From: an uncultured bacterium
GTDB taxonomy: Bacteria; Patescibacteriota; Minisyncoccia; Phycocordibacterales; UBA918
Assembly (NCBI GenBank): GCA_965652925.1
Contig: CBFGXL010000003.1
Span: 9 to 64,008 of the forward strand
Direction of reading: 5' to 3'
Length of the DNA: 64,000 bases
In this document: piece after piece, positions 3,404-29,498 of the stretch
Layout of the letters: the number at the start of each line of letters is the position of its first letter
Position numbering within the stretch: the first letter of the stretch is position 1
Program-made: the position numbers and the translations under genes
The notes under the pieces: model-generated
What the model saw: the letters and a program-made list of their open reading frames with translations, nothing else
Told to the model about the DNA's origin: nothing
Database searches by the model: none

Positions 3404-3438
3404 TTGCATACAACTTGCAACAGGTGCATAGTATCAAT

Positions 3439-3825: not shown

Positions 3826-3831
3826 TTACGT

Positions 3832-4323: not shown

Positions 4324-5547
4324 CTATCGATATTGCGCCAATTCTTCCTTAAGACGGGAGATCTCTTTCTTGAGCTCAATCATTTTCAGTTCACGCTCTA
4401 CCATGAGCTTATTCATTCCCGCCTTTTCTTCGAGGCTCTTGCGCAGGCTCTCATTTGATTCTTTCTCTTTTTGATTGAGCTCCTGCTGTTTCTGAAGTTC
4501 TCGTTCTTCCAACTTCTTGTATTTAGCAAGTTCATCAAACAAATGGTTTATCTGTTCTGCAAGCTTTCCCACATCATCTTTTCCTCCCATATGCACTTCA
4601 GCAAAACTGAGGTTGTCCATCGAAATAGCCCGCATCTCTTTACTTAACTGGGCAAAACGTCGCAAGAGGAGTTTTTCAAGCAGAATCAGTATTGTTCCGC
4701 CAAGTAGCAGGATGGAGACTATTGAGATCAATAAAAATGCGCGTATTGTGTCTTCTCCCTGGGCAGTTATTTCGCGGGGGACATCAATTTTTATGATAAG
4801 TGCAGGTTCACCCATTATGTTGTCGAGCTTAAAATATCCTGCAAGCGTGTCCTTCGAAAGTTTTTGTATAACAGAAGGGGTAACGTCGAGCTGTTGTTGT
4901 GCATATCCAACATCTGCGGGGAGTTCCTGATCTGGGGTAAATGTCTCAATAGATAATTGGGTGACATCCTCAAGCCCTTCCATAAGCTCGTCATCGATAA
5001 ATCTGCCAAATATCAGCGTACCAGCTTTTGGGCCTGAGCCGTCGCTGTATGTAATTGGCTGGGAAACAACAAGCATCGTGCCCTCCTGTAAACTGATGAG
5101 TCCTTGCATCCCTTCTTCGTCCGGAGAAAGAAGGGAGGGGTAACTTAAGATCTGTTGCGTGATTGATGAGGATGGAACATTCACTTCTTCTGCAAGATCA
5201 ACCAGAGTTGAGAAGACAACCTCATTGTTATTGTTGATAAAGGCCATCAGATTGATCTGCAAATTTATCAGTGTTTCATCCGAAAGGTTGGATTCAATGT
5301 ATTCAGTATTGCCGTCGCCTATAAATTGATATGTATCATCCCATTGTGCCCAGTCTGCGAGTTTTATCTGCAGTGAAACTAATTTTTCGTCGAACGAACT
5401 GTGTACTCGGGTAAGGTTCTGCTCCATCTGCGCAGTTTCAATTTTCTCAAAGCTTTTAAGAAGCACGACTTGTGAGATGGTATATATCACCCCTGCAAGA
5501 AGGAGGACACTGGTAATAATTACAGCAATGATTTTAAGTCTGATCAT
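4324..5547 (-). CDS. Kinase-less membrane signal transducer: large extracytoplasmic domain, TM, HAMP, coiled coil, conserved C-terminal RELKMIELKK helix
   Basis: N-terminal TM helix, an extracytoplasmic domain of about 250 aa, a second TM helix, a HAMP-like segment (LLRRFAQLSKEMRAISMDNLSFAEV..GKDDVGKLAEQINHLFDELA), then coiled coil ending MVERELKMIELKKEISRLKEELAQYR. No HisKA or HATPase domain. Confidence 0.65.
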   Translation of the reverse strand: MIRLKIIAVIITSVLLLAGVIYTISQVVLLKSFEKIETAQMEQNLTRVHSSFDEKLVSLQIKLADWAQWDDTYQFIGDGNTEYIESNLSDETLINLQINLMAFINNNNEVVFSTLVDLAEEVNVPSSSITQQILSYPSLLSPDEEGMQGLISLQEGTMLVVSQPITYSDGSGPKAGTLIFGRFIDDELMEGLEDVTQLSIETFTPDQELPADVGYAQQQLDVTPSVIQKLSKDTLAGYFKLDNIMGEPALIIKIDVPREITAQGEDTIRAFLLISIVSILLLGGTILILLEKLLLRRFAQLSKEMRAISMDNLSFAEVHMGGKDDVGKLAEQINHLFDELAKYKKLEERELQKQQELNQKEKESNESLRKSLEEKAGMNKLMVERELKMIELKKEISRLKEELAQYR

Positions 5548-5667: not shown

Positions 5668-6714
5668 ATGAAATGGATATTGGGTTTAATCGCTGTGCTG
5701 TTAGTGGCAGGAGGTGTTGCCACATACGTACTTTTGTTCCTACAGCCTTCTGATCAAGGTTTGACACAGATAGCGGATGAGGACCGGCTTGTAATAGGCC
5801 TTTCGATGGGGACACTTCGCTCTGAGCGCTGGGTACAAGACCGGGATCATTTTGTTGCTCGCGCCGAAGAATTGGGTGCAGAGGTGATTGTTTTTTCAGC
5901 TAATGAGGATCCAGAAGAACAGAACAGGCAGGCTGAAAATCTTATTCTCCAAGGCGTTGATGTGCTCGTAGTTGTTGCAGAAGACTCACAGAAAGCCTCT
6001 GTAATAGTAGATTACGCACATGCAGCTGGTATTAAAGTTATTGCATATGACCGACTGATCCAAAATCCGTCTCTTGATTACTATGTCACCTTTGACAACG
6101 TCAAGGTGGGCGAATACCAGGCACAGAAAGTCTTGGACGTGGTGCCGGAAGGAGATTTTGCCTATGTGGGTGGATCTCCAACTGACAACAATGCATATCT
6201 GGTGAAGGAGGGTAGTATGAACGTATTACAGCCACTGATCGACGAAGGGAAGGTCAACCTTGTCTTTGACGAGTTTAGTGATGACTGGAAGCAGGAAATT
6301 GCATATCAGAATATAAAAGAATTTCTCACTGAAGGTGGAAGCGTTGACGCGGTTATCGCCGCAAATGATTCTACGGCAGCGGGAGTCATACAGGCTTTGG
6401 AAGAGGCGGATCTTGCAGGAAAAGTTCCCGTGTCGGGACAAGATGCAGCGCTTGGTGCAGTACAGAATATCGTAGCGGGGAAACAGACAGTCAGCATTTA
6501 CAAGCCGATTAAGGAACTTGCCTATAAGGCTGCCGAAATCGCAGTTGCTGTTGTTAAGGAGGAGCCATTTATGGTGAATTATCATACTGAAAATGGCGAT
6601 TCAACCACTCCATCTTTCCTACTGGATGTAGTTCCGGTGACAAAGGACAATATCGATGAAACCGTCATCAAAGATGGTTTCCACAAGCGAGAAGAAGTTT
6701 ACTTTGGACAATAG
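5668..6714 (+). CDS. Membrane-anchored periplasmic-binding-protein fold I (sugar-binding-type) substrate-binding protein
   Basis: N-terminal TM or signal anchor; type I periplasmic binding protein fold resembling ribose/xylose-binding proteins (VIGLSMGTL..RW, VDVLVVVAED, GIKVIAYDR). No ABC permease or ATPase gene nearby; it sits immediately upstream of the HAMP transducer. Confidence 0.7.
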   Translation: MKWILGLIAVLLVAGGVATYVLLFLQPSDQGLTQIADEDRLVIGLSMGTLRSERWVQDRDHFVARAEELGAEVIVFSANEDPEEQNRQAENLILQGVDVLVVVAEDSQKASVIVDYAHAAGIKVIAYDRLIQNPSLDYYVTFDNVKVGEYQAQKVLDVVPEGDFAYVGGSPTDNNAYLVKEGSMNVLQPLIDEGKVNLVFDEFSDDWKQEIAYQNIKEFLTEGGSVDAVIAANDSTAAGVIQALEEADLAGKVPVSGQDAALGAVQNIVAGKQTVSIYKPIKELAYKAAEIAVAVVKEEPFMVNYHTENGDSTTPSFLLDVVPVTKDNIDETVIKDGFHKREEVYFGQ

Positions 6715-6720
6715 AACTGT

Positions 6721-7671
6721 ATGAGCATACGACAGAAAATATTCCTTTCTTCTGTTGTTGTTGTATTCCTGATGTTTATTGCTCTTGCCAGCTTCTTTTT
6801 TTTCCACCGTGTAGCCATTGTCGAATATAAGACCATATCCGAGAATCTCATTCTTGAAAATGAATTGGCACAAAAAGTAAATGTACTTGTTGAATCATAC
6901 AATGCCATTGTTATTGCCCCATCAAGTCAGGAGAGGAAGGAGACCTATAAGGCCAATTACGAAGATATAGCTCGTATCATACGCACGCTTGATGAGGCAG
7001 TTGAAAGTGAAGACAGTAAAGTTGCGTATGCTGGGCTCAGACGCATTGTGCTCCTTCTTCTTGAGGATTGTCAAAATGGTATAACCGCACTTGAAAGTGG
7101 TGACACGACAGTTGCGCTCGAATATTACAATGATGCGCAGCACAAGCTTGGCTTCGTCCTTTCAAATACCACCTCGTTTTTGCTCACCGAGATACAGCAC
7201 CTGCATGAGGTGCAAGAGAGGATAGAGAAGCGTTACAGCCAACAGCTGTGGGCAACAGCTTTGTGGACACTCCTTTTGGTCTTTGGTGCTGTTTTGTATG
7301 CACTTATCTTTGCTCGCAGGATCACTTCACCGGTTAATATGCTCTCACATATTTCTGCAAAAGTTTCTGAAGGCAACTTCAATCAGCAAATTCCACAAGA
7401 ACTTCTCAGCCGTTCTGATGAGGTCGGAGGTTTTGCACGCTCATTTCACGTTATGCTCGAGAAACTTAACCACAAAATTAACCAGGTAGAGACAGCAAAT
7501 GAGACGATCCTCAAAACTCAAGAGGACCTAACAGTGCGTAATCAAGAACTTGAAAAATTCAATCGTATGGTTGTTGGCCGAGAGTTGAAAATGATCGAGC
7601 TTAAAGAACGTATTGCAACACTTGAAGAGAAGCTCAAAGATTGCGATCAGGCGAAGTTAAAAAGCGAATGA
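6721..7671 (+). CDS. Kinase-less membrane signal transducer: periplasmic domain, TM, HAMP, coiled coil, conserved C-terminal RELKMIELKERI helix
   Basis: TM1 (VVVVFLMFIALASFFFF), periplasmic helical domain of about 150 aa, TM2, HAMP (ARRITSPVNMLSHISAKVSEGNFNQQIP..DEVGGFARSFHVMLEKL), coiled coil ending MVVGRELKMIELKERIATLEEKLKD. No kinase domain. Convergent with the downstream histidine kinase, overlapping it by 38 nt. Confidence 0.65.
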   Translation: MSIRQKIFLSSVVVVFLMFIALASFFFFHRVAIVEYKTISENLILENELAQKVNVLVESYNAIVIAPSSQERKETYKANYEDIARIIRTLDEAVESEDSKVAYAGLRRIVLLLLEDCQNGITALESGDTTVALEYYNDAQHKLGFVLSNTTSFLLTEIQHLHEVQERIEKRYSQQLWATALWTLLLVFGAVLYALIFARRITSPVNMLSHISAKVSEGNFNQQIPQELLSRSDEVGGFARSFHVMLEKLNHKINQVETANETILKTQEDLTVRNQELEKFNRMVVGRELKMIELKERIATLEEKLKDCDQAKLKSE

Positions 7672-9676: not shown

Positions 9677-10364
9677 ACCCTCGGCTTTTCGGATCCTTCA
9701 TCAAGTTGGGGATGACGCATATAAGCCCCGCCCGCAAAGACTCCGTGCTGAACCTCAAAAGAGAGTCCGGCCGGCGGAGCTTCGGCAGATCAAGCACCGG
9801 TTGTGGGGCAGATGCTTCCCATGTTGTTGTCTGGTGGAGGAGTTTCATGCTCTCATGGGCATACCAGAGTGCAATATCCTCTTCTTTGTAGGGAAGTGTG
9901 CCGCCATTCTCTCTCTCAACCGTGCGTAGATAACGGTCGAGATTGACCAACCGCGGAGCTCCGATGAAGTATACCATTTCTCGTTTTTGGAGCAGTATCC
10001 GCAATTCTTTGTTGAGTGCAGCTCCTGCTTCCGATGAACGTTGGACCACATTCACGGCATAGACGGTTTTTGCTGATGGATCATGAGTATGGATACTCCA
10101 CCCATGTCCTGTCTGTGCTTCAGGCGCGGTGTGTTTACTGATCTCATCGAAGGAGAAATGCACTTGAATTGCATAATAGAAGCCGTCGAGGCGCCCTCCT
10201 TTCTCGGCTACGAGGAAAAAGGGAGAATGAACGTCGTACCACTCTTTGAGAGTGGCGTAAGTGAGGATCTCGGTGCCTTCACGTTCCCATCGGGCCTGTT
10301 CGATCTCAACGAGAGTTGGCAAATCTTCTTCTCTGACATTTCGGACTGTGTAGCAGTCGAACAT
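9639..10364 (-). CDS. Hypothetical protein, weak GNAT-acyltransferase-like N-terminal half
   Basis: N-terminus VRNVREEDLPTLVEIE and FFLVAEKGGRLDGFYYAIQV resemble the GNAT beta-strand core, and RSSEAGAAL is a possible motif A. The C-terminal 100 aa are unassigned. Sits in an operon between the decarboxylase and the kinase. Confidence 0.3.
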   Translation of the reverse strand: MFDCYTVRNVREEDLPTLVEIEQARWEREGTEILTYATLKEWYDVHSPFFLVAEKGGRLDGFYYAIQVHFSFDEISKHTAPEAQTGHGWSIHTHDPSAKTVYAVNVVQRSSEAGAALNKELRILLQKREMVYFIGAPRLVNLDRYLRTVERENGGTLPYKEEDIALWYAHESMKLLHQTTTWEASAPQPVLDLPKLRRPDSLLRFSTESLRAGLICVIPNLMKDPKSRGYGAFLASDFSTI

Positions 10365-10404
10365 TGTTTCTTTCTCCTATGTAAGGAACTCGTCTCTGCA
10401 TGCC

Positions 10405-10827
10405 CTAGACGTATGTCCGGGCATTCTTTTGTAGAGATGAGAGTGAGGTGTTGTGAAATCGCTTTCCTCTGATAAGTAGATTCGTTTCAAAAGCTTGGAT
10501 ATTGAATACTTCACTTATGAGTTTTGTGGTTTTTTGAGCGTCGAAGGTTTTGCAGGAATACACATCCGCAGTGACAAACCCCCGTTCTTCATAGGTGTGG
10601 ATACTGATGTGTGATTCCATGATAAAGACGAATCCTGAAAGGCCGCGTATTCCTGGCTCATCAACTTTAATGATGTGAGGGAAACCAACTCTGCGCATAC
10701 CAATGTGCGCCGGGAGTTCCATGAGCAATTTGTACAGATTATCGACGCTCCCGCAGAGTTTTGCATTCGCTGCGTATCCGTCGAGTGTCAGCTGCAGCCC
10801 GTAGGCTGTATTTTTCTCTTTTTCCAT
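10405..10827 (-). CDS. Pyruvoyl-dependent S-adenosylmethionine-decarboxylase-fold proenzyme (SpeH/SpeD class 1-like) with deviant motif
   Basis: Small (about 140 aa) AdoMetDC-like protein with self-cleavage and pyruvoyl-forming motif FIMESHISIHTYEE; the canonical form is ..ESH(L/I)..HTWPE. Start set at the internal ATG (MEKEKN), 1 nt after the stop of the upstream methyltransferase. Confidence 0.7.
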   Translation of the reverse strand: MEKEKNTAYGLQLTLDGYAANAKLCGSVDNLYKLLMELPAHIGMRRVGFPHIIKVDEPGIRGLSGFVFIMESHISIHTYEERGFVTADVYSCKTFDAQKTTKLISEVFNIQAFETNLLIRGKRFHNTSLSSLQKNARTYV

Positions 10828-10828
10828 A

Positions 10829-11572
10829 TTACTTCGTGATGATAGGAGCAACGATCGTGTTGCTCTTCCAATACTGGCAATTCTCAGGGGGAACCACCGG
10901 ACAGATACTGAGGTCGATATGTCTAAACCCAGCCTGCTTCAATTTGTGCATATGTGCATCAGAAAAAGAATCTATCTCATCTGAGTAGTAGGTGAGCACC
11001 CCGCCATCTTTGAGCATGCGGAAGGCTTCTTCAAAGAATGTAAAGTGGTTTTGGTGGATCTCATCCTCGCTTAAGGGGTAGGTGTCAAATAATATCCCTG
11101 AGATGCTTCCGTCAGGGATAACTTTGGCAATGTCCTGCCAGAATCCGTATAGGGGAATAATCGGGTGAGCACTTTCCTGTGCAAAAGTCACGAGAGTATC
11201 GAATACATCATTATTGGCCTCGATAATGTAGTGTGAATCAATAGCGTGCGATTGAATATATTGCGCTGAGATACCCATGCCAAAGCCTACTTCAAGCACT
11301 GTTCCTCCTTGTGAAGCGGCGATTCTCGCGAGCTCTTGCATGTATGGGTCTTCCCAGCGTTCCATAACTGGATGTCCCTGTATCACCAATTCATCTTGCG
11401 TAAGCGTTGCTTTTTCCTGCTTCCACATGTGGTAATCCGATAAGAAACCGATATCACGTCGTGACTGATACGTAACCTCACGTATGTCATCAAATTTTTT
11501 GTTTTGGATCATCTTAAAAAAGTTATTGATTAACTTTTTTAGTCTACAAAACAGAGGATAAACTTCCCTCAA
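10829..11572 (-). CDS. GAMT/Rmt2-family (guanidinoacetate N-methyltransferase-like) SAM-dependent methyltransferase
   Basis: Core closely matches the remembered GAMT sequence: HPVMERWEDPYM, VLEVGFGMGI, IIEANNDVF, IIPLYGFWQD, LPDGSISGILFDTYPLSED, GGVLTYYSD. The true start may be the internal M (MIQNKK). Confidence 0.75.
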   Translation of the reverse strand: MREVYPLFCRLKKLINNFFKMIQNKKFDDIREVTYQSRRDIGFLSDYHMWKQEKATLTQDELVIQGHPVMERWEDPYMQELARIAASQGGTVLEVGFGMGISAQYIQSHAIDSHYIIEANNDVFDTLVTFAQESAHPIIPLYGFWQDIAKVIPDGSISGILFDTYPLSEDEIHQNHFTFFEEAFRMLKDGGVLTYYSDEIDSFSDAHMHKLKQAGFRHIDLSICPVVPPENCQYWKSNTIVAPIITK

Positions 11573-11622
11573 AGAAAAATTAAATTTTATTTCACAAAAA
11601 AATAAACTGTACAGCGTGCAGC

Positions 11623-12294
11623 TTATGAGTGGTCAAATCTATACCCAATCCCCGGTACTGTCTGTATAAGGCGTGCATGGCGTTCTGAATCAAGCTTTCG
11701 GCGGAGTGTCATGATATGCGTTTCTATTGTGTTTGAAAAAGGATCGGCGTTCATGTCCCATACATGCTCCAGTATCATGCCGCGTGAAAGAACCGTGCCG
11801 CGATTTCTCATGAGATACTCAAGGAGTAGGAATTCTTTGCGTGTGAGATATACCTCTTGTCCATTTTTCTTCACAATATGTCGTTTGCAGTCGAGTTCAA
11901 GATCTCCAATTTCAAGAATGTCTGACTGGAGTTCTTTCGGGCGGCGCAAGAGTGCTCGAATGCGCGCAAGAAGCTCTTCAAATGAAAACGGTTTTGTGAG
12001 GTAATCGTCAGCACCGGCATTGAGGAATCCTATCTTATTTACGGTTTCTGATTTAACAGAAAGTCCAATTATCGGCGTTTTAATGTTGCGTGTTCTGAGT
12101 TCTTTGCATATATCAAGTCCTGTATTGCGAGGCAACATGAAGTCTAGAATGATCACGTCGTAATCATTGGTCGTACCCAAATATACTCCTTCTTCACCAT
12201 CAAATGTTGTGTCGACAACAAAATATTCTGATTCCAAACTGATCTTCAGAAATTCATTAATTTTTGGGTCGTCTTCAACTACAAGGATGCGCAT
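11623..12294 (-). CDS. OmpR/PhoB-family response regulator (REC plus winged-helix DNA-binding domain)
   Basis: REC domain MRILVVEDDP..D..ILDFMLP..GL..K..PIIGLS; Trans_reg_C region LTRKEFLLLEYLMRN.G.VLSR..I...VW with ending GIGYRF. First gene of the minus-strand operon. Confidence 0.9.
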   Translation of the reverse strand: MRILVVEDDPKINEFLKISLESEYFVVDTTFDGEEGVYLGTTNDYDVIILDFMLPRNTGLDICKELRTRNIKTPIIGLSVKSETVNKIGFLNAGADDYLTKPFSFEELLARIRALLRRPKELQSDILEIGDLELDCKRHIVKKNGQEVYLTRKEFLLLEYLMRNRGTVLSRGMILEHVWDMNADPFSNTIETHIMTLRRKLDSERHARLIQTVPGIGYRFDHS

Positions 12295-12482
12295 ATGAGC
12301 TACAGGGACAGTGGTATTGAGAATATATCTTTTTAGTACAAATACTTGATAAATATTTTATCTTAAATTTGCAATCATGTATATGCAAGTTCATTAGCAT
12401 ACAGATGAGTTTACTTATCTACTGCACAAGATATGTATACGCACTGTGCTCAAGATATACTGAAGATATCTGAGGTGTGTGA

Positions 12483-13658
12483 ATGATCTCTGCAATCAGT
12501 AATTTATATATTGTTATGCATATTGAGCAGAAACTTTGGACACAGCGCGATGGATGGCAAAGCAAAAGTGAGCCTCTCCAGCACACCCCACAGCTCGTGT
12601 TTGTATTTGGCGGCAGAGCAGAGGTCCAAAAGCAGGAGTATTTTGCTGAGATAAAAAAAATGTATCCCGACTCGAACATTCTCACCTGTTCTACTTCGGG
12701 TGAAATTCTGGGAACACGTGTCTATGACCACTCTTTGTGCGTTACTGCAATTCACTTTGAAAAAACAAAAGTGTCGTTTGCTCAGACAACTATTGCAAGT
12801 ACTGATGAAAGTGAAGCGAAGGGGAAGATACTTGCTGAATCTCTACCGCATGACGATCTCGCTCATGTGCTGGTCTTTTCTGATGGGCTTATAGTAAATG
12901 GCACTGCGTTAGTTGATGGTCTGACAGCTGCACTGCCAAGCACTATTTCTGTTACTGGCGGGTTGGTGGGGGATGGAGCTGATTTTAAACATACTGTTGC
13001 GGGGCTCAATGAAGCTCCCAAGGAAAATAACATTATTCTCATTGGATTGTATGGAACCGACATTAACGTTGGGTACGGATCGCTCGGAGGATGGGATACC
13101 TTCGGTCCCGATCGAACTATTACTCGTTCAAAAGGAAATGTGCTCTATGAGCTCGATGAACAACCTGCGCTTGAGCTTTACAAGGAATATTTAGGTGAAC
13201 TTGCTTCAGAGCTTCCTGGGTCAGGACTCTTGTTCCCGATGCGATTGCAGTACATTTCTAAAAATGGAGAAGTCGAGGTGGTTCGTACGCTTTTGGGTAT
13301 AAATGAAGAAGATCAAAGCATGACTTTTGCCGGTGATATGCCGGAGGGGGTTACAGCTACCCTTATGCGGGCAAACTTCGAACGATTAGTTGATGGAGCA
13401 CAAGGGGCAGCGAAGATGAGTATTGAAAACAGTGGAAAAGAGGTTGAATTCGCTTTACTTATCAGTTGTGTGGGAAGGAAGCTGGTTCTTAAAGAACGAA
13501 TTGAAGAGGAGACTGAAGCAGTCCAGTCGGTTGTCGGGGAAAAAACAGTGATGGCAGGATTCTATTCGTATGGAGAGATCTGCCCTATTGCACCAACAGA
13601 AAAACAATGCCGTTTGCACAATCAGACCATGACCATAACAACGTTGAGCGAAAAGTAA
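12483..13658 (+). CDS. FIST-domain sensor protein (FIST_N plus FIST_C)
   Basis: Pattern LVFVFGG...ILTCSTSGEI and GGLVGDG..F.HT..G matches the FIST N/C architecture of cytoplasmic small-ligand sensors. First gene of the plus-strand signalling operon. Confidence 0.65.
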   Translation: MISAISNLYIVMHIEQKLWTQRDGWQSKSEPLQHTPQLVFVFGGRAEVQKQEYFAEIKKMYPDSNILTCSTSGEILGTRVYDHSLCVTAIHFEKTKVSFAQTTIASTDESEAKGKILAESLPHDDLAHVLVFSDGLIVNGTALVDGLTAALPSTISVTGGLVGDGADFKHTVAGLNEAPKENNIILIGLYGTDINVGYGSLGGWDTFGPDRTITRSKGNVLYELDEQPALELYKEYLGELASELPGSGLLFPMRLQYISKNGEVEVVRTLLGINEEDQSMTFAGDMPEGVTATLMRANFERLVDGAQGAAKMSIENSGKEVEFALLISCVGRKLVLKERIEEETEAVQSVVGEKTVMAGFYSYGEICPIAPTEKQCRLHNQTMTITTLSEK

Positions 13659-13659
13659 C

Positions 13660-14322
13660 ATGCATAGGACCCTGGTTCGACAACTCGATAAGTATGCTGA
13701 CCTCACTCCAGAGAGTGTTGTGTCTCCATGGAAAGAGTTGCTGTCTGCGGTCAGTACTACCTATGATGATTTTGACCGGGATAAACAGCTTATTGAGCGT
13801 TCGCTTGAAATAAGCTCACACGAACTGCGTCGCCTCATTTCCACACTGCAGGCGACACTTGATGCCACCAATGAAGGTATTCTTGTTATGGATGACAAAG
13901 GAAGGATGGCTAATCACAATAAAAGATTTACAGAGATTTGGAGCATCCCTGATGACATCATGAACACCCATGATGCAACAAAGGCACTTGAGTATGCTAT
14001 GCAGCTTGTACTCAATCCGGTGCCGTTCCGCGAGAGTGTGGAAGAAGCACTGAATAAAAACGATAAAGAGACTGTGTATGTTGTACACTTTAAGGATGGG
14101 AGAGTAATAGAACTTCGATCCAAGCCACACTTTCTTGACGGGGAGAGTGCGGGTACGATCTGGAGTTCTCGTGACATCACCCAGAGTGTTAAGGCTGAAG
14201 AAGATCTGAAAGCAAAGCTCGCAGCTCTTGAATTACTTAACAAGTCGATGGTTGATCGAGAGTTAAAGATGATTGAGCTCAAGAAGAAGATCGCAGAATT
14301 GTCGAAGGACAATACCTTATGA
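13660..14322 (+). CDS. Kinase-less cytoplasmic PAS-domain transducer with conserved C-terminal RELKMIELKKKI helix
   Basis: PAS-like core (LDATNEGILVMDDKGRMANHNKRFTEIWSIP...) then coiled coil ending MVDRELKMIELKKKIAELSKDNTL. The stop overlaps the start of the downstream kinase by 4 nt (ATGA). Confidence 0.65.
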   Translation: MHRTLVRQLDKYADLTPESVVSPWKELLSAVSTTYDDFDRDKQLIERSLEISSHELRRLISTLQATLDATNEGILVMDDKGRMANHNKRFTEIWSIPDDIMNTHDATKALEYAMQLVLNPVPFRESVEEALNKNDKETVYVVHFKDGRVIELRSKPHFLDGESAGTIWSSRDITQSVKAEEDLKAKLAALELLNKSMVDRELKMIELKKKIAELSKDNTL

Positions 14323-16469
14323 AAAAAAGCGAACGTTTTACATACGGAATACAACTGAAGTTTATCCTCTTCAGGTTGTTTAATACTCTCATTATCATCC
14401 TGCTTGGAGCATTCTGTATCTACATGATCACAGATGCAGGGAAGAGTTCTTCGAGTGTTGTGGAGAACAGATTGCCAAAGCTCGATGCCGTCCAAGAAAT
14501 ATACTCAGCTGTTTTCTCTTCAGGTCTATATGGTGCTGCTGTACTTAATGATCAGGACAGACTCGGTGGAGAAGATCAGTACACGCGTGAGCTTGAGGAA
14601 AGTTTCAAGAGGGCACATCTATATTTAGACGCGCTCATCTATGGCACAGAGACCGAAACATTTGAAAAATTGCACGGACGGGATATGAATGATCTGGGTA
14701 TTGAATCACTCAGTATAGTAAATCCTTCAGAAGAGCTGGTTGAATCTGTGACAGAAGTGAAGATGGAAGTCGAAAAATTCGAAGAGTCACTGCGCACTGC
14801 AATAACTGCTCGTGAGGCTTCTACGGCGGATGCGTCAGAGGCAACTACGAGTGCTCTGCTGCAGCAGGATACCTACGAATTGCAACGTGTTGCCTTTACC
14901 TCACATACCGACAGCATCGCTCAGGCTCTCGATGAAGTGCAGACCTTGCTTGATACGCAGATTAATACAGGGATCGAACAAGTAAATGAAAACAATAAAA
15001 CCAGGGTAGTTCTTGTTTTTCTTGTCGTGCTATTGGCAGCAACTGTAGCGCTCTTTGGAGGGCTTTTATTCTCTAACCATGTAATACTCGGACCGTTACG
15101 CTCACTCACACAAACAGCAGAGGAGATGGCTGAAGGGAAACTTTCACGCCGAGTGAAAATCACATCCAAGGATGAAATTGGAAAACTTGGTTATACATTC
15201 AATAAACTCGCAAGCAGACTTCAGTCATCGTATGACGATCTGGAGAAGATAGTTAAAGATAAGACCGATGCTCTCTCTTCGGTACTTCAGCAGTTTGAAT
15301 CGAAAAATGACGACCTTGAAAAGTCGCAGATGGCAACCATCAACCTTTTGGAAGATCTTGAGGAGGAGAAACGTGCTGTTGAGCAAAGAGTCAAGGACAG
15401 AACTGAAGAGCTTGAGCGTGAAAAAAATAAACTTCTCCAAGTGACGAGCAACATGAAAGGAGGAGGTATCCTTCTTGATAAGGAAGGCAATGTTGTATTC
15501 ACTAATGAAGCAACATTTAAAATGCTCGACATAAAAGAGGGAGTAAGTTCCAAAGAGATTCTTGAGCATTTTCTTTCTTACTTTGATGAGTCTTCTATCC
15601 GACAGTACTTCAAGCGATGCATCGCGGGGGAAACTTTTCATGTGGAAGAGATCAGCGGCCATGGCAGGGTGTACGAGATGTTCTTCCATTATTTGAAGAA
15701 TGATGAAGTGAAAGGATCAGAAGGCTACTTTATCTTGTTCTTCGATATAACTGACGCGAAGCTCCTCGAACGCTCAAAAAGCGAACTGGTTGCTGTTGCA
15801 TCACATCAGTTACGTACACCACTTACCGCTATGCGCGGAAACGTAGAAATGCTTATTGACGAAAGTTTTGGAAAGCTTAACAAAGAACAGCATGAGCTTC
15901 TTGATGATGTTGAGGTTTCGACCATACGTCTCATTACTATGGTCAATGAGATGCTTGATATAACAAAGATAGAAAAAGGTGATCTGGAGATGCAGATTGA
16001 GGAACTTAACCTCAAAGAGATTGTCGACTCTGTCATTGATGACCTTAGTTCTTATGCGAAACGGCACGAGTTCGACATTGACCGGAGCGATCTTTCTGCC
16101 AACGTCATGATTGCAGGAGACAAAGTGCGAGTACGGCAGATCTTCCAGAACCTTATTGATAACGCCATCAAATACAGCAATCATCCCGGTCTGCTCCGCA
16201 TATCAACCAATGTACAATCTGATATGGTTGAGATCGTTTTCAAAGACAATGGCATTGGTGTTCCTAAAAATGAACAGCCGAAGCTCTTTGAACGATTTTA
16301 TCGGGCTTCAAACACGGCAAAGACTGCAAGTAGCGGTTCAGGTTTAGGACTCTATATTGTAAAATCAATTGCACGACAGCTTGGTGGAGACATCCGTTTC
16401 GAATCTGAAGAGGGAATAGGGACAACCTTCTTTGTTACCTTGCCATTGTTTGCTAAACATAAAGCATAG
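14319..16469 (+). CDS. Sensor histidine kinase (TM, periplasmic domain, TM, HAMP, coiled coil, PAS, HisKA, HATPase_c)
   Basis: HAMP PLRSLTQTAEEMAEGKLSRRVKITSKDEIGKLGYTFNKLA; H-box VASHQLRTPLTAMRG; N box NLIDNAIKYS; G boxes DNGIGV and GSGLGLYIVKSI. Confidence 0.9.
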   Translation: MKKSERFTYGIQLKFILFRLFNTLIIILLGAFCIYMITDAGKSSSSVVENRLPKLDAVQEIYSAVFSSGLYGAAVLNDQDRLGGEDQYTRELEESFKRAHLYLDALIYGTETETFEKLHGRDMNDLGIESLSIVNPSEELVESVTEVKMEVEKFEESLRTAITAREASTADASEATTSALLQQDTYELQRVAFTSHTDSIAQALDEVQTLLDTQINTGIEQVNENNKTRVVLVFLVVLLAATVALFGGLLFSNHVILGPLRSLTQTAEEMAEGKLSRRVKITSKDEIGKLGYTFNKLASRLQSSYDDLEKIVKDKTDALSSVLQQFESKNDDLEKSQMATINLLEDLEEEKRAVEQRVKDRTEELEREKNKLLQVTSNMKGGGILLDKEGNVVFTNEATFKMLDIKEGVSSKEILEHFLSYFDESSIRQYFKRCIAGETFHVEEISGHGRVYEMFFHYLKNDEVKGSEGYFILFFDITDAKLLERSKSELVAVASHQLRTPLTAMRGNVEMLIDESFGKLNKEQHELLDDVEVSTIRLITMVNEMLDITKIEKGDLEMQIEELNLKEIVDSVIDDLSSYAKRHEFDIDRSDLSANVMIAGDKVRVRQIFQNLIDNAIKYSNHPGLLRISTNVQSDMVEIVFKDNGIGVPKNEQPKLFERFYRASNTAKTASSGSGLGLYIVKSIARQLGGDIRFESEEGIGTTFFVTLPLFAKHKA

Positions 16470-16473
16470 TTGT

Positions 16474-16899
16474 ATGGAAAAAATCACAGAATCAAAGCCA
16501 TTGAAAGACAGGAAGATACTCATCGTTGAGGATGATCATTTTATTTCACGAATCTATGAAAAATGGCTCACTGCTGCTGGAGCTCATATTCTGATTGCGC
16601 ACGATGGTGTGCAAGGGCTGCGTACGCTTGACGAAGAAGAGGTCGATCTTGTGCTTCTTGATCTCGGTATGCCTGGACTTGATGGCTACCAGACGCTGCT
16701 GCAACTGCGCGAGCGTCCGAAGTTGAAGGAATTGCCAGTTATTATTCTCAGTAATACGACCATGAATGAGAATCGTGATGGCTTTGCAGATATAAAAAGG
16801 GCAGGGGTTAAGGATGTGCTCCGCAAATATGAGATATCGCTTACCGAGATAGTGAACTGTATCAGCGCATATTTCCCTAAAGAGTTAAAAACCCAATAA
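16474..16899 (+). CDS. Single-domain response regulator receiver (CheY-like)
   Basis: KILIVEDD..D, LVLLDLGMPGLDG and a conserved Lys region. No output domain. Start set at ATG (MEKITESK) just after the kinase stop. Confidence 0.85.
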   Translation: MEKITESKPLKDRKILIVEDDHFISRIYEKWLTAAGAHILIAHDGVQGLRTLDEEEVDLVLLDLGMPGLDGYQTLLQLRERPKLKELPVIILSNTTMNENRDGFADIKRAGVKDVLRKYEISLTEIVNCISAYFPKELKTQ

Positions 16900-16908
16900 A
16901 TTTATTCT

Positions 16909-17301
16909 ATGAGTACACCACACAAAATATTATTGGGGGAAGATGAAGAGTTTGTTGCTCGTTCTTACATCCGGAAACTCCAGGTAGAGGGCTATGAAGT
17001 TGTGCACGCGCACAATGGAGAAGAGGCCCTTAAACTTATGGAGGTTGAGAAACCGGACCTAGTTATACTTGATCTCATGATGCCGGTGAAAACTGGGTTT
17101 GAGGTTCTGCAAGAAATAAAATCAGGAACAAATGAAGCGCTGAAAAAGCTGCCGATTATTGTAGCATCTAATCTTGGTCAGAAAACAGATATTGATACCG
17201 CACGTTCGCTCGGTGCAATTGATTTCCTCATTAAATCAAACATATCGCTGAAGGAGCTTGTGGCAAAAGTGCAGGAGCATCTACCTGCGCAAAAAAAGTA
17301 G
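16909..17301 (+). CDS. Single-domain response regulator receiver (CheY-like), second copy
   Basis: KILLGEDEEF, LVILDLMMPVKTG, PIIVASNLG. No output domain. Immediately upstream of pilB. Confidence 0.85.
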   Translation: MSTPHKILLGEDEEFVARSYIRKLQVEGYEVVHAHNGEEALKLMEVEKPDLVILDLMMPVKTGFEVLQEIKSGTNEALKKLPIIVASNLGQKTDIDTARSLGAIDFLIKSNISLKELVAKVQEHLPAQKK

Positions 17302-17306: not shown

Positions 17307-18986
17307 ATGGAAATTTCCACTGATAATTTAGAAGAAATGCTTGTCCCGCCGGGACATATTACTGAAGAGCAGCTTCTTGCTGCAGTGACCGCTTCGGAGT
17401 ACAAACGTATTCCCTTAAAGGAAGAGCTCATTGAAGAAGGTCTGGTCACGGATGTTAATCTTGGGAGAACCATTGCTGATTTCTTCGACTGTCGGTTCAT
17501 CGACCTTGCTGAACTTTTGCTGAAAGATGAATATCTGCCGTATATTCCTGAAATAGTTGCTCGTGCGCAAAGAGCTGTCGTGTTCGGTGTGACTGATACA
17601 TCTGTTCAAGTTGCTACAGAGAATATCGACAACTATGAGTTCTTCAGACTTTTGGAGAAGAAGACAGGAAAAGAGGTGGATGTGTATTACGCAACCACTC
17701 GTGGGTTAGATCGCGCCCTTAAGCATTATAAAGGTGATCTCAATGGAAAGATCATTTCTCTTATACAGACCAGTTTACAAGACCAGCAGGATGGAGATAT
17801 TGTGCGGCTCGTGGATCTTTTCCTTGAATACGCAAGCGACAATCGCGCCTCAGACATTCATATTGAGCCGCTTGAAGAGGAGATACTCATACGGTTCCGT
17901 GTTGACGGCATATTGCACGAGGCTGTGCGGTATCCTAAAGTGCTGCATGAAAAGGTCATCTTCCGCATCAAGATTATGGCACATATGCAGACAGACGAGC
18001 ATGCTGCAGCACAAGACGGACGTTTTGAATACAAAGGTGCTGACAGTATATTTGATGTTCGTGTTTCTATATTGCCTATAACAGACGGTGAAAATGTGGT
18101 TATGCGTCTTTTGGACTCGCGTACACATCGTTACTCGCTTGAGAATCTTGGTCTTGGTGAAAGTGACTATAACAAGATCATCAATGCTATTGAAAAGCCT
18201 CATGGCATGATCATGGCGGTAGGACCAACCGGCTCCGGCAAGACCACTGTGCTGTACACCATACTGGAGAAACTCAACAGCAGTGAGGTCAATATCATGA
18301 CCATTGAAGACCCGGTTGAGTACGATATCGAAGGCGTGCAACAAACACAGGTCAACCCTAAAAAGAATCTCACGTTTGCAACCGGTTTGCGATCGATCGT
18401 CCGGCAAGACCCGGACATCATCATGGTGGGAGAGATCCGTGATGAGGAAACAGCTGACATTTCAATCAACTCGGCGCTTACCGGACATTTGGTCATTTCA
18501 ACATTGCACACGAATGATGCTGCAACTACCTTTCCGCGACTTATGGAAATGAATGTGGAGCCATTCCTCATTGCGTCATCAGTTAATGTCATTATTGCGC
18601 TCCGACTGGTGCGAAAGATATGCACTCACTGTAAGGAGAGTTACTTGCCGACTAAAACAGAGCTGCAGCTTTTGCAGCTTGATGACCATATTGTGGAGTT
18701 CATCACTCGTATTGGCGGTAGCAAGGATCTGACCAAACTACGATTGTACCGGGGTGTCGGCTGCAAGATGTGCCGCAATTCAGGCTTCAGCGAGCGGGGA
18801 GGTATTTTCGAGGTACTCGAAGTTGATGAGGACATACGCCTCCTTATAACGCAAAAGGCATCGGCAGAAATGATCAATCAAAAGGCAATAGAAAAAGGAA
18901 TGACCACGCTGTTGTACGACGGCATTGTTAAAGCCCTTAATGGTACAACAACGCTTGAAGAGGTAATGAAGGTGGCACGCACATAA
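17307..18986 (+). CDS. pilB: Type IV pilus assembly / type II secretion ATPase PilB/GspE
   Basis: T2SSE_N-like N-domain; Walker A GPTGSGKTT; Asp and His boxes; tetracysteine motif CTHC...CKMCRNSGF. Confidence 0.9.
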   Translation: MEISTDNLEEMLVPPGHITEEQLLAAVTASEYKRIPLKEELIEEGLVTDVNLGRTIADFFDCRFIDLAELLLKDEYLPYIPEIVARAQRAVVFGVTDTSVQVATENIDNYEFFRLLEKKTGKEVDVYYATTRGLDRALKHYKGDLNGKIISLIQTSLQDQQDGDIVRLVDLFLEYASDNRASDIHIEPLEEEILIRFRVDGILHEAVRYPKVLHEKVIFRIKIMAHMQTDEHAAAQDGRFEYKGADSIFDVRVSILPITDGENVVMRLLDSRTHRYSLENLGLGESDYNKIINAIEKPHGMIMAVGPTGSGKTTVLYTILEKLNSSEVNIMTIEDPVEYDIEGVQQTQVNPKKNLTFATGLRSIVRQDPDIIMVGEIRDEETADISINSALTGHLVISTLHTNDAATTFPRLMEMNVEPFLIASSVNVIIALRLVRKICTHCKESYLPTKTELQLLQLDDHIVEFITRIGGSKDLTKLRLYRGVGCKMCRNSGFSERGGIFEVLEVDEDIRLLITQKASAEMINQKAIEKGMTTLLYDGIVKALNGTTTLEEVMKVART

Positions 18987-18989
18987 CAT

Positions 18990-20039
18990 ATGCTCGGTTC
19001 AATTTCTATTCAGCATCGCGTCGATTTTGCCAAAAACTTGGCAATTATGCTTCGTAGCGGTATAGCCATCAATGATGCGCTTACTTCATTGGGAGAGCAG
19101 AGTGAATCTTCGCGCCTGCGCAGGATTATTTTTAAGGTTCGTGACGATATCGAAAATGGGACATCGCTGTCTGCCGCCTTCGCGAAGGAGGTGCATGTTT
19201 TTGGGCAGATATTTGTCAGTATGATCAAAGCCGGAGAGCAGAGCGGTACGCTGCAAGGGAATCTGCAATTCCTCTCAGACTGGCTTTCACGGAGTGCAGA
19301 TCTCAAACGTGAGGTTTCAGCAGCGACACTGTATCCAAAAATGGTCTTTGGCGCGTCGGTTGTCCTTGGTGGGGGGCTTGCGGTATTCATACTTCCCATG
19401 CTTGTGCCACTGTTTACCGGTCTTGATGTGGAGCTTCCACTGCTTACACGAGTATTGCTTGCCTTGTCTTTGTTTGTGCAGGAATACTGGTTCTGGTGCA
19501 TTGTCGGCACAATTGCCGCGATCGCTGCGCTCATTTACAGCAATACCTTTGCGCCGGTGAAATTCCTCTTTCATCTTTTATATATTCGTATGCCGTTCCT
19601 TGGGAAACTCATGCGCCAGTATCAGCTCGCACTTATCACACAGTTGTTTGCAACACTGCTCAAAAGTGGCTTATCGCTCAATGAGTCTGTTGAGATCGTC
19701 TCTCAAGCAGCAACGAATGTGCATTATCAAAATGCGCTCCGTGAGGTCAAGTCTGCAACTGAAAAAGGGACGACGTTGTCAGAGACCATGCGTGACTTCC
19801 CACAGATGTTTCCGGTGATCGCTGTTAATATCATTGCCATTGGCGAAAAAAGTGGAACGCTATCGAATTCACTCGATTATCTTTCGGATTTTTATACCAA
19901 AGAGGTGAATGTGCAGGCACGCAAACTGCCGACCATCATTGAGCCGCTGTTGCTTATTTTTATTGCGGTTATCGTCGGTTTTGTTGCGCTTGCGATCATC
20001 ATGCCAATCTATGAGCTTACCGGAAATATCTCACGTTAA
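18990..20039 (+). CDS. pilC: Type IV pilus inner-membrane platform protein PilC/GspF
   Basis: Two T2SSF-like repeats with conserved segments (AIMLRSGIAINDAL, ATLLKSGLSLNESV) and three TM regions. Confidence 0.85.
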   Translation: MLGSISIQHRVDFAKNLAIMLRSGIAINDALTSLGEQSESSRLRRIIFKVRDDIENGTSLSAAFAKEVHVFGQIFVSMIKAGEQSGTLQGNLQFLSDWLSRSADLKREVSAATLYPKMVFGASVVLGGGLAVFILPMLVPLFTGLDVELPLLTRVLLALSLFVQEYWFWCIVGTIAAIAALIYSNTFAPVKFLFHLLYIRMPFLGKLMRQYQLALITQLFATLLKSGLSLNESVEIVSQAATNVHYQNALREVKSATEKGTTLSETMRDFPQMFPVIAVNIIAIGEKSGTLSNSLDYLSDFYTKEVNVQARKLPTIIEPLLLIFIAVIVGFVALAIIMPIYELTGNISR

Positions 20040-20460
20040 AGGATTCACACTCGCCGAACTTCTTGTGGTTGTTGCGCTTATGCTTGTTGTGGGCATGTTC
20101 ATGTTTCCGCTTGGAATACAGTTCTACCGTTCACAGATGCTCAATGAAAGTTCTGAGGGTATTTCTTCGGCATTGCGTCGCGCTCAGCATCTATCTCGAA
20201 CAGGTGCATATGACAGTACCTTCGGCGTGCGTGTGATTGATGGCGGCTACGTGCTCTTTTCTGGCGAGACCTATGATTCAAGAGATGTCACCCAAGATGA
20301 ATCACATTCGCTCCCCGCAACTATAAGCATCACTGGGTTGCAGGAGGTGTCATTTGAACTGTTTACCGGCAATCCCTCAGCAACCGGCACCCTTACTGTG
20401 CAGACAGATACCGCTGAAGCCTCAGTGACTGTTCAGGATTCAGGCTTTATTGTGCAATAA
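20011..20460 (+). CDS. Prepilin-type N-terminal cleavage/methylation domain protein (pseudopilin/minor pilin)
   Basis: Class III signal peptide ..HVKGFTLAELLVVVALMLVV with Glu at +5. Start set at the ATG overlapping the pilC 3' end by 29 nt; the upstream part of the six-frame ORF looks non-coding. Confidence 0.6.
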   Translation: MSLPEISHVKGFTLAELLVVVALMLVVGMFMFPLGIQFYRSQMLNESSEGISSALRRAQHLSRTGAYDSTFGVRVIDGGYVLFSGETYDSRDVTQDESHSLPATISITGLQEVSFELFTGNPSATGTLTVQTDTAEASVTVQDSGFIVQ

Positions 20461-22178: not shown

Positions 22179-23474
22179 ATGAAACATACACGGTTGATCG
22201 GAGTAGATATAAGCGACGCATCACTGAAGGTTCTTCAGCTGAGCAATGATGGAGTCATACTTGCATATGGTACTGCCTTGGTTCCTTCAGGGGTGATTGA
22301 GAACGGACGTATCGTCAATAAAGAAGCATTCGCAGCAGCGCTGAAGGGCTTGCTTCAACAGACCAAACCAAATGTGTTGCTCGATGGAAACAGTATTATC
22401 CGCACCGTCTTGTGTCTGCCGGAGTCAAAGCTGTTTACGCATTCACTTGTGATACCTGAAGGAACAAAAAGAAATGACATGCGCAGAGTGGTTGAAGAAG
22501 AGGCACGGAAGATCATTCCATATGAATTAGAACGGATGTACTGGGATTTCCACACTGCAGTCAAACTCGGGAAGACCTTCGCTACCTTTGTGGGAGTGGC
22601 AAAGTCTGATCTTGATAACTTTGTTGAAGCTTTCAGTTCTGCCCATGCACAGCCTGCGTTTATTGGAGGCGAATTGTTTGCGCTCGGACACGCTCTTCTC
22701 GAGGATCAGTTCAAAGGAAATTGCATCGTTGTTGATATGGGTCAGCACAGTACAACCATTGGTTTGTTTGCAGCAGATGTGATGCCAGACATGTCGGTGG
22801 TAGTCCCGTGTGCCGGAGATTCATTTACCCAGGCGATTGCAACAAAACTCGGTGTGGGTATGGAGGAAGCGGAGAAACAGAAGCGTATGTACGGGGTGCT
22901 CAGTGCACATGAGAAAACTGGCGTACCTGGTGAGCTGCGCACTTGCCTCAAGCAGATTACCGATGAGGTCAAGGCTATGAAATCCTTTTTTGAAAAACGA
23001 TATGAATTGTCAATTGATCATATCGTCCTTTCGGGAGGTTCGGCCCTTCTGCCGGGAATTGTGGAGCTGATGCAGGAAGAGACAGGGATTGCGTCGTACT
23101 TGGCTGATCCGTTAGTGAAAGTCAAAGGCCATGAAGTACTCGGTTCAGGAACCCCAGGCATTCTTTTTGCAAATGTCATTGGTCTGGCGCTCTATGCAAA
23201 GCAAAAACGAAGAGGCGACATCAACCTTCTTGGAAATTACCGGTATGAAGAAGGGGAAGCAAAAAAGGAACTGCCAAGCATTCAGGATATTCGATCCTTG
23301 GGTGATTTGTACTATTTTTTGTATAGCAATATCCAGAATATCAGGAATTTTCTCGATGATCGGAGTGATTCATTTAAAAAAAAGGTCACTATACCTGTTC
23401 AGCTCATACTGAGTCTGCTGTTTCTTGCAGCAACGCTCGTATTTCTTGGTTGGGTTATGCTCACTTACATGTAA
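22179..23474 (+). CDS. pilM: Type IV pilus assembly protein PilM (actin-like ATPase fold) with C-terminal TM segment (PilM-PilN-like fusion)
   Basis: N-terminus LIGVDISDASLKVLQL and the overall fold-signature pattern of PilM/FtsA-like proteins. C-terminal extension of about 80 aa ending in the TM helix VQLILSLLFLAATLVFLGWVML. Start set at the internal ATG (MKHTRL). Confidence 0.7.
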   Translation: MKHTRLIGVDISDASLKVLQLSNDGVILAYGTALVPSGVIENGRIVNKEAFAAALKGLLQQTKPNVLLDGNSIIRTVLCLPESKLFTHSLVIPEGTKRNDMRRVVEEEARKIIPYELERMYWDFHTAVKLGKTFATFVGVAKSDLDNFVEAFSSAHAQPAFIGGELFALGHALLEDQFKGNCIVVDMGQHSTTIGLFAADVMPDMSVVVPCAGDSFTQAIATKLGVGMEEAEKQKRMYGVLSAHEKTGVPGELRTCLKQITDEVKAMKSFFEKRYELSIDHIVLSGGSALLPGIVELMQEETGIASYLADPLVKVKGHEVLGSGTPGILFANVIGLALYAKQKRRGDINLLGNYRYEEGEAKKELPSIQDIRSLGDLYYFLYSNIQNIRNFLDDRSDSFKKKVTIPVQLILSLLFLAATLVFLGWVMLTYM

Positions 23475-28354: not shown

Positions 28355-28374
28355 TAATAGGGTATTATAGTGAT

Positions 28375-29319: not shown

Positions 29320-29498
29320 TTTGTTTTTATGCTTCATTGGGTCAGCCTAAGGTATTTTCTTATTATAAAGACCCCGTGAGAGTTTGAGGCAGTTAGTTTG
29401 GGCTGCACTACATAAAGGTCCGCGGGTTTGTGGCGGTTTTTTGTGCCGGGATGAACTGTGATACCATACAAAGGACTTGTAAACATAATGATGATTTC

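Follow-up and report, generated by a model that had tools for sequence, protein, structure and literature searches.

We analyzed a 64-kb stretch of DNA (64,000 nt; hereafter the window) of contig CBFGXL010000003.1, from an uncultured bacterium of the candidate phyla radiation (CPR; Patescibacteria, class Paceibacteria), in which a type IV pilus (T4P) operon is directly preceded by genes for a FIST protein, a PAS adaptor, a membrane histidine kinase and two single-domain receivers, REC1 and REC2. Type IV pili have a central place in the life of these bacteria, serving host attachment, motility and DNA uptake. We propose that the CPR pilus operon carries its own dedicated two-component system, in which phosphorylated REC2 (REC2~P) would act on the pilus machine; we regard this as an even call. 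Sequence comparison points to a conserved core, made of the kinase core and REC2, that is inherited together with pilB, pilC, the pilin genes and pilM, and to REC1 and the FIST-PAS pair as accessories outside that core. Targeted literature searches on CPR pilus regulation, and on FIST together with pili, returned nothing relevant.

The proposal is supported by linkage. We compared the window with related contigs and loci (designated L001, L007-L025 and L065), which were annotated with the window proteins and with precomputed Pfam tables. A PilB-anchored scan of a genome collection gave 10 loci, while L023, L024 and L025 were anchored on REC2 and L020 on FIST. REC2 orthologues adjoin the pilus operon in 12 of the 12 other loci, either upstream or downstream, WWE3 included. 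Four arrangements were observed. The order sensors, kinase, REC1, REC2 and pilB is found in the window, L007, L008/L010 and L025. Kinase, REC2 and pilB, with a 1-nt gap, occur in two WWE3 metagenome-assembled genomes (MAGs; L015 and L016), whose PilB is 45-47% identical. Kinase and REC2 lie behind pilB and the pilin genes, often followed by FIST-PAS, in L009/L012, L011, L013, L020, L023 and L024; in L009, L011 and L012 it is FIST that comes after the pilus operon, kinase and REC2. Finally, L014 has kinase, REC1 and REC2 behind the pilin genes. The cassette has moved between the ends of the pilus operon, yet it stays attached in the loci compared. The preliminary description of this DNA had tied the signalling genes functionally to the pilus genes, and the presence of the kinase core and REC2 beside the pilus operon in every related locus examined agrees with it.

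The loci anchored on REC2 were not chosen by PilB, and all three are pilus-linked, as is the FIST-anchored L020. As a control, 80 loci around unrelated receivers (31-44% identity to REC2) were taken from a metagenome scan; among the 32 that are at least 10 kb long, a PilB-like gene was present in one, and PilC and PilM in none. Against this control, the linkage gave a Fisher p of 1.5e-4 for the three unbiased REC2-anchored loci and of 6e-10 for all twelve loci. The scan behind this control had been run with the REC2 alignment to find further orthologous loci and returned only such generic receivers; three more distant PilB loci (~40% identity) are without the cassette. The receiver of L021, a FIST-kinase operon that lacks pilus genes, belongs to a different system, since it is only 39% identical to REC2.

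REC2 is at least as conserved as PilB and ranks first in conservation among the proteins of the cluster. In L007, L008, L025 and L013, respectively, identity was 85, 76, 74 and 62% for REC2, 82, 78, 56 and 69% for PilB, and 48, 47, 28 and 38% for PilM; in L025, REC2 exceeds not only PilB and PilM but also PilC (52%). An alignment of 41 REC2 orthologues contains 26 invariant columns, and because D12, D55, S87 and K109 are among them, REC2 is expected to be phosphorylated. Its ATG start at 16909 (130 aa), used in the preliminary description, is preferable to the TTG at 16933 (122 aa) of some gene callers, because the beta-1 strand (ILLxEDEE) starts at residue 7 and the orthologues are 125-131 aa long. 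REC1, as read from the sequence, shares with REC2 an intact acidic pocket together with the phospho-acceptor Asp and the Ser/Thr and Lys residues. REC1 was found in only five loci (the window, L007, L008, L014 and L025), at 43-68% identity, and is less conserved than REC2. No hydrophobic segments are present in REC1, REC2 or the PAS protein. That the regulators lack a DNA-binding output was confirmed: REC1 and REC2 match Response_reg alone, and the 120 best REC2 homologues are, without exception, Response_reg only. The top NCBIfam and PDB matches of the receivers were OmpR-family proteins, RssB, CheY and Spo0F; the best named relatives of the REC2 receiver were RpaB, YycF and PhoB (NCBIfam), with Spo0F among its PDB matches.

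From its N-terminus, the kinase consists of a first transmembrane segment (TM1), an extracytoplasmic domain of ~185 aa, TM2, HAMP, a coiled coil/S-helix, PAS, HisKA (His496) and HATPase_c, and a TM scan placed its hydrophobic segments at about residues 10-42 and 226-257. With its H-box (ASHQLRTPL), the HATPase_c domain and the receiver residues described above, the pair has the features of a classical two-component system. Both the membrane HAMP-PAS-HisKA-HATPase architecture and the cytoplasmic nature of FIST had been described before, in accordance with the Pfam domains and with the two hydrophobic segments of the kinase and none in FIST. The best NCBIfam matches of the kinase were WalK, PnpS and PhoR. 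Because of this resemblance, and of that of REC2 to the receivers of RpaB, YycF and PhoB, the comparison suggests an OmpR-family pair as the ancestor of the kinase-REC2 pair, the DNA-binding domain of its regulator having since been lost. The pilus-linked kinases have a near-identical core, comprising the coiled coil (NxLEDLxEEK), S-helix, PAS domain, H-box and ATPase domain. Their N-terminal sensors vary by locus, and include an unassigned two-TM (4-helix-like) domain, a PDC domain like that of methyl-accepting chemotaxis proteins (MCPs), dCache, PAS and NAD_binding_1.

In the window, the six open reading frames (ORFs) from FIST to pilB run head to tail on the plus strand (Table 1), as laid out in the preliminary description; the ORF list, Pfam and the junctions all agree. 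FIST and the PAS gene are separated by 1 nt, the PAS and kinase genes overlap by 4 nt (ATGA), and gaps of 4, 9, 5 and 3 nt follow between kinase and REC1, REC1 and REC2, REC2 and pilB, and pilB and pilC. The only sizeable gap 5' of FIST is the 188-nt divergent region, which is likely the promoter region of the plus-strand operon; a consensus scan found a promoter-like site inside it at 12317-12346, which is weak evidence. The same kind of scan found no terminator-like site in any intergenic gap, the number of sites not being above that in shuffled sequences. Identical gene order was present on at least 22 contigs of independent metagenome samples. The cassette through pilB is likely co-transcribed.

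Table 1 Features of the signalling cassette, the pilus operon and associated elements (window coordinates unless a locus is named).
Feature	Position	Strand	Description	Evidence or details
CHASE4-TM-HAMP transducer	4324..5547	-	Ends in C-helix (MVERELKMIELKKEI)	Pfam CHASE4 3.5e-38, weak HAMP
Periplasmic-binding-protein sensor	5668..6714	+	Peripla_BP_4; partner of the next gene	Pfam 9.5e-58
Two-TM HAMP transducer	6721..7671	+	Ends in C-helix (VVGRELKMIELKERI)	Pfam HAMP 1.2e-6
Divergent intergenic region	12295..12482		188 nt	Only sizeable gap 5' of FIST
FIST protein	12483..13658	+	Stand-alone, cytoplasmic, NosP-like auxiliary sensor	Pfam FIST_N 6.7e-44, FIST_C 3.3e-35
PAS adaptor	13660..14322	+	N-terminal FIST-partner motif (residues 1-65), PAS_7, C-terminal helix (residues 177-220; DNA 14188-14319)	Pfam PAS_7 2e-10
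FIST-partner N-motif sites	window 13660-13860; L021 10155-10340; L065 2237-2420; L022 10157-10350
Sensor histidine kinase	14319..16469	+		Pfam HAMP 1.5e-12, HisKA 1.4e-18, HATPase_c 4.9e-31, weak PAS_4 3.9e-4
REC1	16474..16899	+	Accessory single-domain receiver	Pfam Response_reg alone, 5e-20
REC2	16909..17301	+	Conserved pilus-linked single-domain receiver, phospho-acceptor Asp55	Pfam Response_reg alone, 1e-20
A AAA AAG heptamer	17292..17298	+	In the REC2 frame, followed at once by the TAG stop; the -1 frame is that of pilB
Junction peptide of the predicted REC2-PilB fusion			PAQKKVVVMEISTD; PAQKKVVVMEISTDNLEEM
pilB	17307..18986	+	PilB-type extension ATPase	Pfam T2SSE 8.6e-122 plus MshEN
pilC	18990..20039	+	Platform protein	Pfam T2SSF 3.7e-57
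Four small (pseudo)pilin-like genes	20011-20460, 20467-21261, 21267-21776, 21782-22177	+		N_methyl motifs; gene calls on identical contigs
pilM	22179..23474	+	Actin-like pilus assembly protein, 431 aa	Pfam PilM_2 4.2e-27; gene call
Two pilin genes	23486-23944, 24015-24503	+		N_methyl 3.7e-8 and 1.5e-8

The pilus operon of the window holds the CPR-type set, namely the extension ATPase, the platform protein, PilM and prepilins with N-methylation motifs, and neither a secretin nor PilT was found among the window ORFs scanned with Pfam. PilB matched both the PilB and the GspE families of NCBIfam, in each case under the equivalog cut-off. It is 78% identical to the protein of a Candidatus Paceibacteria MAG and 68-74% identical to those of Kaiserbacteria and Nomurabacteria MAGs, the Kaiserbacteria values being 71-74%, and the named homologues of PilB, FIST and REC2 are all from Patescibacteria. 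The pilB gene has no Shine-Dalgarno sequence of its own: the closest AGGAG lies 29 nt 5' of the ATG, inside REC2, and a small hairpin covers the start codon. Because of these two features, the sequence suggests that pilB is translated by coupling to REC2. The N-terminus of PilB (17307-17520) forms an MshEN-like domain, which seems to be without the Arg and Gln of the cyclic di-GMP (c-di-GMP)-binding motif. No GGDEF, EAL or PilZ domain was present among the ORFs scanned across the window, and receiver-based control may replace c-di-GMP control of this pilus.

The sequences establish gene and domain content, linkage, shared motifs and intact phosphorylation residues; every protein contact and the direction of regulation in the following model are inferred. 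The kinase would integrate its own extracytoplasmic domain with detachable sensor/transducer pairs, and signals from both would set its kinase/phosphatase balance. These pairs would be FIST with the PAS adaptor and the binding protein with the HAMP transducer; the CHASE4-HAMP transducer would also contribute. The transducers, which have no enzymatic output, would dock on the kinase via their common C-terminal helix, and FIST would act on the adaptor via the N-motif of the latter, as NosP-type FIST proteins act on their kinases. The kinase would phosphorylate REC2 at Asp55. Because REC2 is without an output domain, REC2~P would act by binding the pilus machine and thereby alter pilus activity; by analogy with EmvR, DrdR and the Pix receivers, we favour PilB as its target, with PilM or PilC as alternatives. 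REC1 would be an accessory receiver, probably competing for phosphate as a sink or an antagonist.

Precedents exist for this type of output. Kinase-phosphorylated receivers that have no output domain bind PilB (and PilT or PilC) and change ATPase activity or localization. EmvR of Xanthomonas oryzae, which works with ColS, binds PilB and represses its ATPase (PMC11973254); DrdR of X. campestris is a receiver-only regulator that binds PilB (PMC13507683); and PixE, PixG and PixH of Synechocystis are receivers acting on PilB (bioRxiv 10.1101/2021.06.11.447907; PMC11181946). We propose the same mechanism for REC2. Those receivers are orphans or parts of Che-like systems and are encoded outside the pilus operon, whereas the CPR system is encoded in the operon itself and conserved with the pilus by vertical descent. 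As a whole, it combines a NosP-like FIST front end that is split by an adaptor, a classical kinase and a receiver-only output like that of EmvR and PixE.

The front end was described earlier as a predicted amino-acid sensor. That is an old prediction for FIST domains, and the only characterized stand-alone FIST proteins, the NosP proteins, bind haem/nitric oxide (NO); NosP senses these ligands and binds and controls a co-operonic kinase (PMC12570481, PMC8846402). In the NosP-NahK/NosK-NosR systems of Pseudomonas, Legionella and Burkholderia, as here, the FIST gene directly precedes that of its signalling partner, and a kinase and a receiver are encoded in the same operon. The partner N-motif in our window is also the same as that of FIST-following kinases of other phyla. 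The differences are that the FIST partner of the window is a PAS adaptor with no kinase domains, the membrane kinase being a separate protein encoded next, that the output is a receiver-only protein encoded by the pilus genes instead of a c-di-GMP enzyme, and that haem/NO binding by the CPR FIST is questionable. The NCBIfam NosP model gave the window FIST 60.9 bits, far below the equivalog cut-off of 450. Its AlphaFold2 (AF2) model has a pLDDT of 89.6, and the best PDB fold match, and only clear structural relative, is the FIST domain of human FBXO22. PDB sequence searches with the FIST and PAS proteins gave no matches, and no solved bacterial FIST structure was found in the PDB by sequence or fold. 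FIST proteins are 60-75% identical across many CPR lineages. In 55 CPR FIST sequences, His128, Cys329 and Cys376 are invariant and His379 is near-invariant, which makes these residues candidate ligands of a cofactor or metal. CPR bacteria usually have no haem synthesis, and a NosP-like haem site in this FIST is uncertain for that reason.

A protein with FIST_N and FIST_C shares an operon with a histidine kinase in the window, L008, L020, L021, L024 and L065. In the loci compared, every gene after a FIST gene opens with one N-motif, MH-x-x-L-x-RQ...VS-x-TY-x-DFD-x-D...ERSLE-x-SS-x-EL. It heads a real PAS-HisKA-HATPase or hybrid kinase in L021 (Daviesbacteria) and L065 (a non-CPR soil contig), and a kinase-less PAS adaptor ending in the C-terminal helix (C-helix) in the window, L008, L020 and L024. 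In L022, it stands on a 124-aa protein that consists of the N-motif, a coiled coil and the C-helix only. The N-motif is likely the docking site of FIST. The simplest reading of these architectures would be that FIST acts on the N-motif and that the C-helix replaces the covalently attached kinase by docking in trans. The FIST-PAS pair of the window operon lies outside the conserved core and is absent or replaced in L007, L014, L023 and L025.

The preliminary description had also noted a shared helix at the C-terminus of the PAS transducer, and the same helix indeed ends two other transducers of the window. This C-helix, N-x-x-M-V-x-RELKMIELK-x-x-I, is common to the PAS, HAMP and CHASE4-HAMP proteins, all of which are without an output domain and are encoded at most 10 kb upstream of the kinase. 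By BLASTP, the HAMP transducer matched the C-terminus of the PAS protein at 53% over 38 aa (E = 3e-8). In L007, the binding protein and HAMP transducer take the place of FIST-PAS directly 5' of the kinase; in the window, this pair lies 6.6 kb further upstream. The pilus two-component system has C-helix genes as neighbours in L007, in L008 (two copies), in L013 (where the gene immediately precedes pilB) and in L020, L024 and L025, and the control loci, 734 kb in all, had no C-helix gene.

Beyond these loci, a C-helix profile gave 10,637 matches to representative proteins at E <= 1e-3, of which 147 also passed E <= 1e-10; the proteins are ~50 to 1,600 aa long. Almost all of the best 150 matches have the helix at their extreme C-terminus, and at most 30 residues follow the motif in 119 of 133 regular-expression matches. 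Ten C-helix proteins were scanned for domains: seven are multi-domain sensors of 700-1,600 aa with PAS, GAF, PocR, Cache or substrate-binding-protein (SBP) domains, and an enzymatic signalling output domain is absent from all ten. The matches span many phyla, high-GC sequences from outside the CPR among them. The C-helix falls in no Pfam family, its motif string was found in no indexed paper, and Pfam searches at E <= 10 with the N-motif and C-helix segments gave only chance coiled-coil matches. We consider it most likely that the C-helix docks on the kinase. Two other ideas about this helix were rejected. That it is a degenerate first helix of the kinase dimerization and histidine phosphotransfer (DHp) domain, with H changed to R, found no motif-to-H-box alignment when 133 segments were compared with the DHp regions of the pilus kinases by hhalign; and that it pairs with the NLLEDL coiled coil of the kinase, as the two halves of a motif that is contiguous elsewhere, conflicts with the co-occurrence of the two in only 2 of 133 proteins. 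In P0249 (251 aa), the top match to the C-helix profile, a partial PMSR domain is joined to HAMP and the C-helix, which may be a real fusion or a miscalled gene; in the window, msrB and msrA (3415-4320) lie tail to tail with the CHASE4 transducer.

Several observations weigh against our proposal that a pilus-dedicated kinase and REC2 act on the pilus machine. Half of the loci have REC2 at the far end of the operon from pilB, so what is conserved is not the adjacency to pilB as such. The contact of REC2 with PilB, PilM or PilC is purely what we infer by analogy. FIST scored so far under the NosP cut-off that a NosP-type ligand is not assignable by score. The enrichment of the C-helix is taxonomically confounded, as the controls are mostly not CPR, and the C-helix also occurs without a kinase nearby (L022) and in thousands of proteins of other phyla, so its partner may be more general than this kinase. 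Finally, the REC2 receiver resembles those of the OmpR/PhoB family and Spo0F, and could work in a relay or as a heterodimer with a DNA-binding regulator.

This last point leads to the main alternative, that control is indirect or transcriptional: REC2 (and REC1) would relay phosphate, serve as a phosphate sink or pair with a DNA-binding regulator in a heterodimer, and the output would be pilus gene expression. Known pilus two-component systems such as PilS-PilR do act on transcription, and the closest relatives of REC2, as listed above, are receivers of transcription factors, with Spo0F among the PDB matches. An OmpR-type regulator is also encoded divergently, right 5' of FIST (11623-12294), and another adjoins REC2 in L013. 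However, the minimal conserved set is kinase, REC2 and pilus genes, and it includes neither a histidine phosphotransfer (Hpt) protein nor a DNA-binding regulator; the divergent OmpR gene is paired with a 7TM-GAF kinase of its own within a separate operon, and that whole block is missing from L007. PilS-PilR is likewise dedicated to T4P and encoded near pilus genes, but PilR is an NtrC-type sigma-54 activator with a DNA-binding domain, unlike REC1 and REC2, and PilS has six TM segments where our kinase has two TM segments, HAMP and PAS. The very high conservation of REC2 fits a conserved protein target, and we give transcriptional control a minor though real chance. Far less credible, with next to no chance of being right, is the PilG/PilH-type (Pil-Chp) chemosensory system named in the preliminary description. 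Two single-domain receivers do adjoin the pilus genes, and paired antagonistic receivers characterize both Pil-Chp and Tax1 of cyanobacteria (PMC11181946). Like Pil-Chp of Pseudomonas and its relatives (PilG/PilH, ChpA, PilJ, PilI), the window has receiver-only regulators dedicated to T4P, maybe as an antagonistic pair. The label nevertheless fails on both kinase and receivers: the kinase is of the classical HisKA type, REC1 is missing from most loci so that one receiver of the two is conserved, and the REC2 receiver is most like those of the OmpR/PhoB family. No CheA, CheW, MCP-signal, CheR or CheB was found in any of the ~60 scanned ORFs of the window, and no MCP-signal, CheW, CheR or CheB domain in the related loci scanned.

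The two remaining alternatives concern the ends of the cassette. FIST and the PAS adaptor might be a separate unit that merely shares the transcript, with the C-helix acting on another, more general partner. The FIST-adaptor pair without a pilus kinase in L022, the lack of FIST-PAS in several pilus two-component loci, and the wide occurrence of the C-helix (>10,000 protein clusters, many phyla, almost always at the very C-terminus) speak for it. It has to be set against L021 and L065, where the protein after FIST carries the same N-motif and is itself a histidine kinase, from which we take the ancestral output of the FIST module to be a kinase. The pilus kinase also has a FIST-PAS pair or another C-helix transducer next to it in the window and 6 of the 12 related loci, two more being cut inside FIST. 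We judge a separate unit to be unlikely. At the other end, REC2-PilB might partly be made as a fusion by -1 frameshifting or slippage on the A AAA AAG heptamer, tethering the receiver to the motor. The junction reads ...CAA AAA AAG TAG tcgtc ATG, with the heptamer in the correct frame directly 5' of the REC2 stop and no stop intervening in the -1 frame, in which pilB is open; the hairpin over the pilB AUG begins 5 nt downstream, and pilB has no Shine-Dalgarno of its own. As in the dnaX -1 frameshift site, an identical slippery heptamer in the 0 frame is combined with a downstream hairpin and an upstream AGGAG. L001 has A8 instead of A7 (14757-14830) and encodes a 684-aa REC2-VVV-PilB fusion. 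Yet this fusion occurs on one contig, where a sequencing error is possible, versus 18 (14 + 2 + 2) with a separate pilB; the heptamer and the frame relation are not kept in L007, L008, L015 and L016, and none of the 120 best PilB homologues has a receiver domain. AAAAAAG occurs 48 times in the window, the hairpin is weak (fold z-score -1.8), and the product would be a fusion, not a truncation as in dnaX. The dnaX-like heptamer is probably a coincidence and the A8 of L001 probably an error or a rare variant; real frameshifting has a small chance, and tethering by this route seems highly improbable. REC-PilB fusions were also considered as Rosetta-stone evidence and rejected, the 120 best homologues of the fused sequence being PilB-only and nearly all ~560 aa long.

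Other genes of the window surround this region. A divergent operon on the minus strand (7634-12294) encodes the OmpR-type regulator, a guanidinoacetate-N-methyltransferase-like protein, an S-adenosylmethionine decarboxylase, an unknown gene and the 7TM-GAF histidine kinase. This block and FIST-PAS are missing from the otherwise syntenic L007, which points to an insertion or deletion separating the close relatives. The pilus genes are followed directly by a copper/redox cluster (26261-30709) with a CopC-CopD fusion, a Gmad2 Ig-like protein, a cupredoxin and a DsbA-like thioredoxin; some of this cluster comes after the pilus operon in L007 too. A gene at 30699-32051 encodes a 450-aa protein with a match to Pfam MATCAP (microtubule-associated tyrosine carboxypeptidase; E = 1.4e-14), a family unexpected in CPR.

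Accompanying the pilus operon across Paceibacteria and WWE3, this two-component system is the obvious candidate for a host- or environment-sensing input. Two signalling motifs that are conserved but unannotated also came out of the analysis, the N-motif of FIST partners and the RELKMIELK helix of output-less sensors. If the C-helix is a kinase-docking element, it would account for the signalling of many 'PAS-only' or 'HAMP-only' sensors. More speculatively, and improbably in our estimate, the RELKMIELK transducers might be a new class of plug-in receptors. Several of them, each with a sensor of its own (FIST through the N-motif, a periplasmic binding protein through HAMP, or CHASE4), would dock by the common helix on one classical kinase, which in CPR would drive a receiver-only regulator that switches the pilus motor. 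An analogy with chemoreceptor arrays, here built without CheA, CheW and MCP, is offered just as tentatively. If true, episymbionts would gain a host- or environment-sensing input to attachment, and the helix, found in >10,000 protein clusters of other phyla, would mark a general, unrecognized mode of sensor-kinase coupling.

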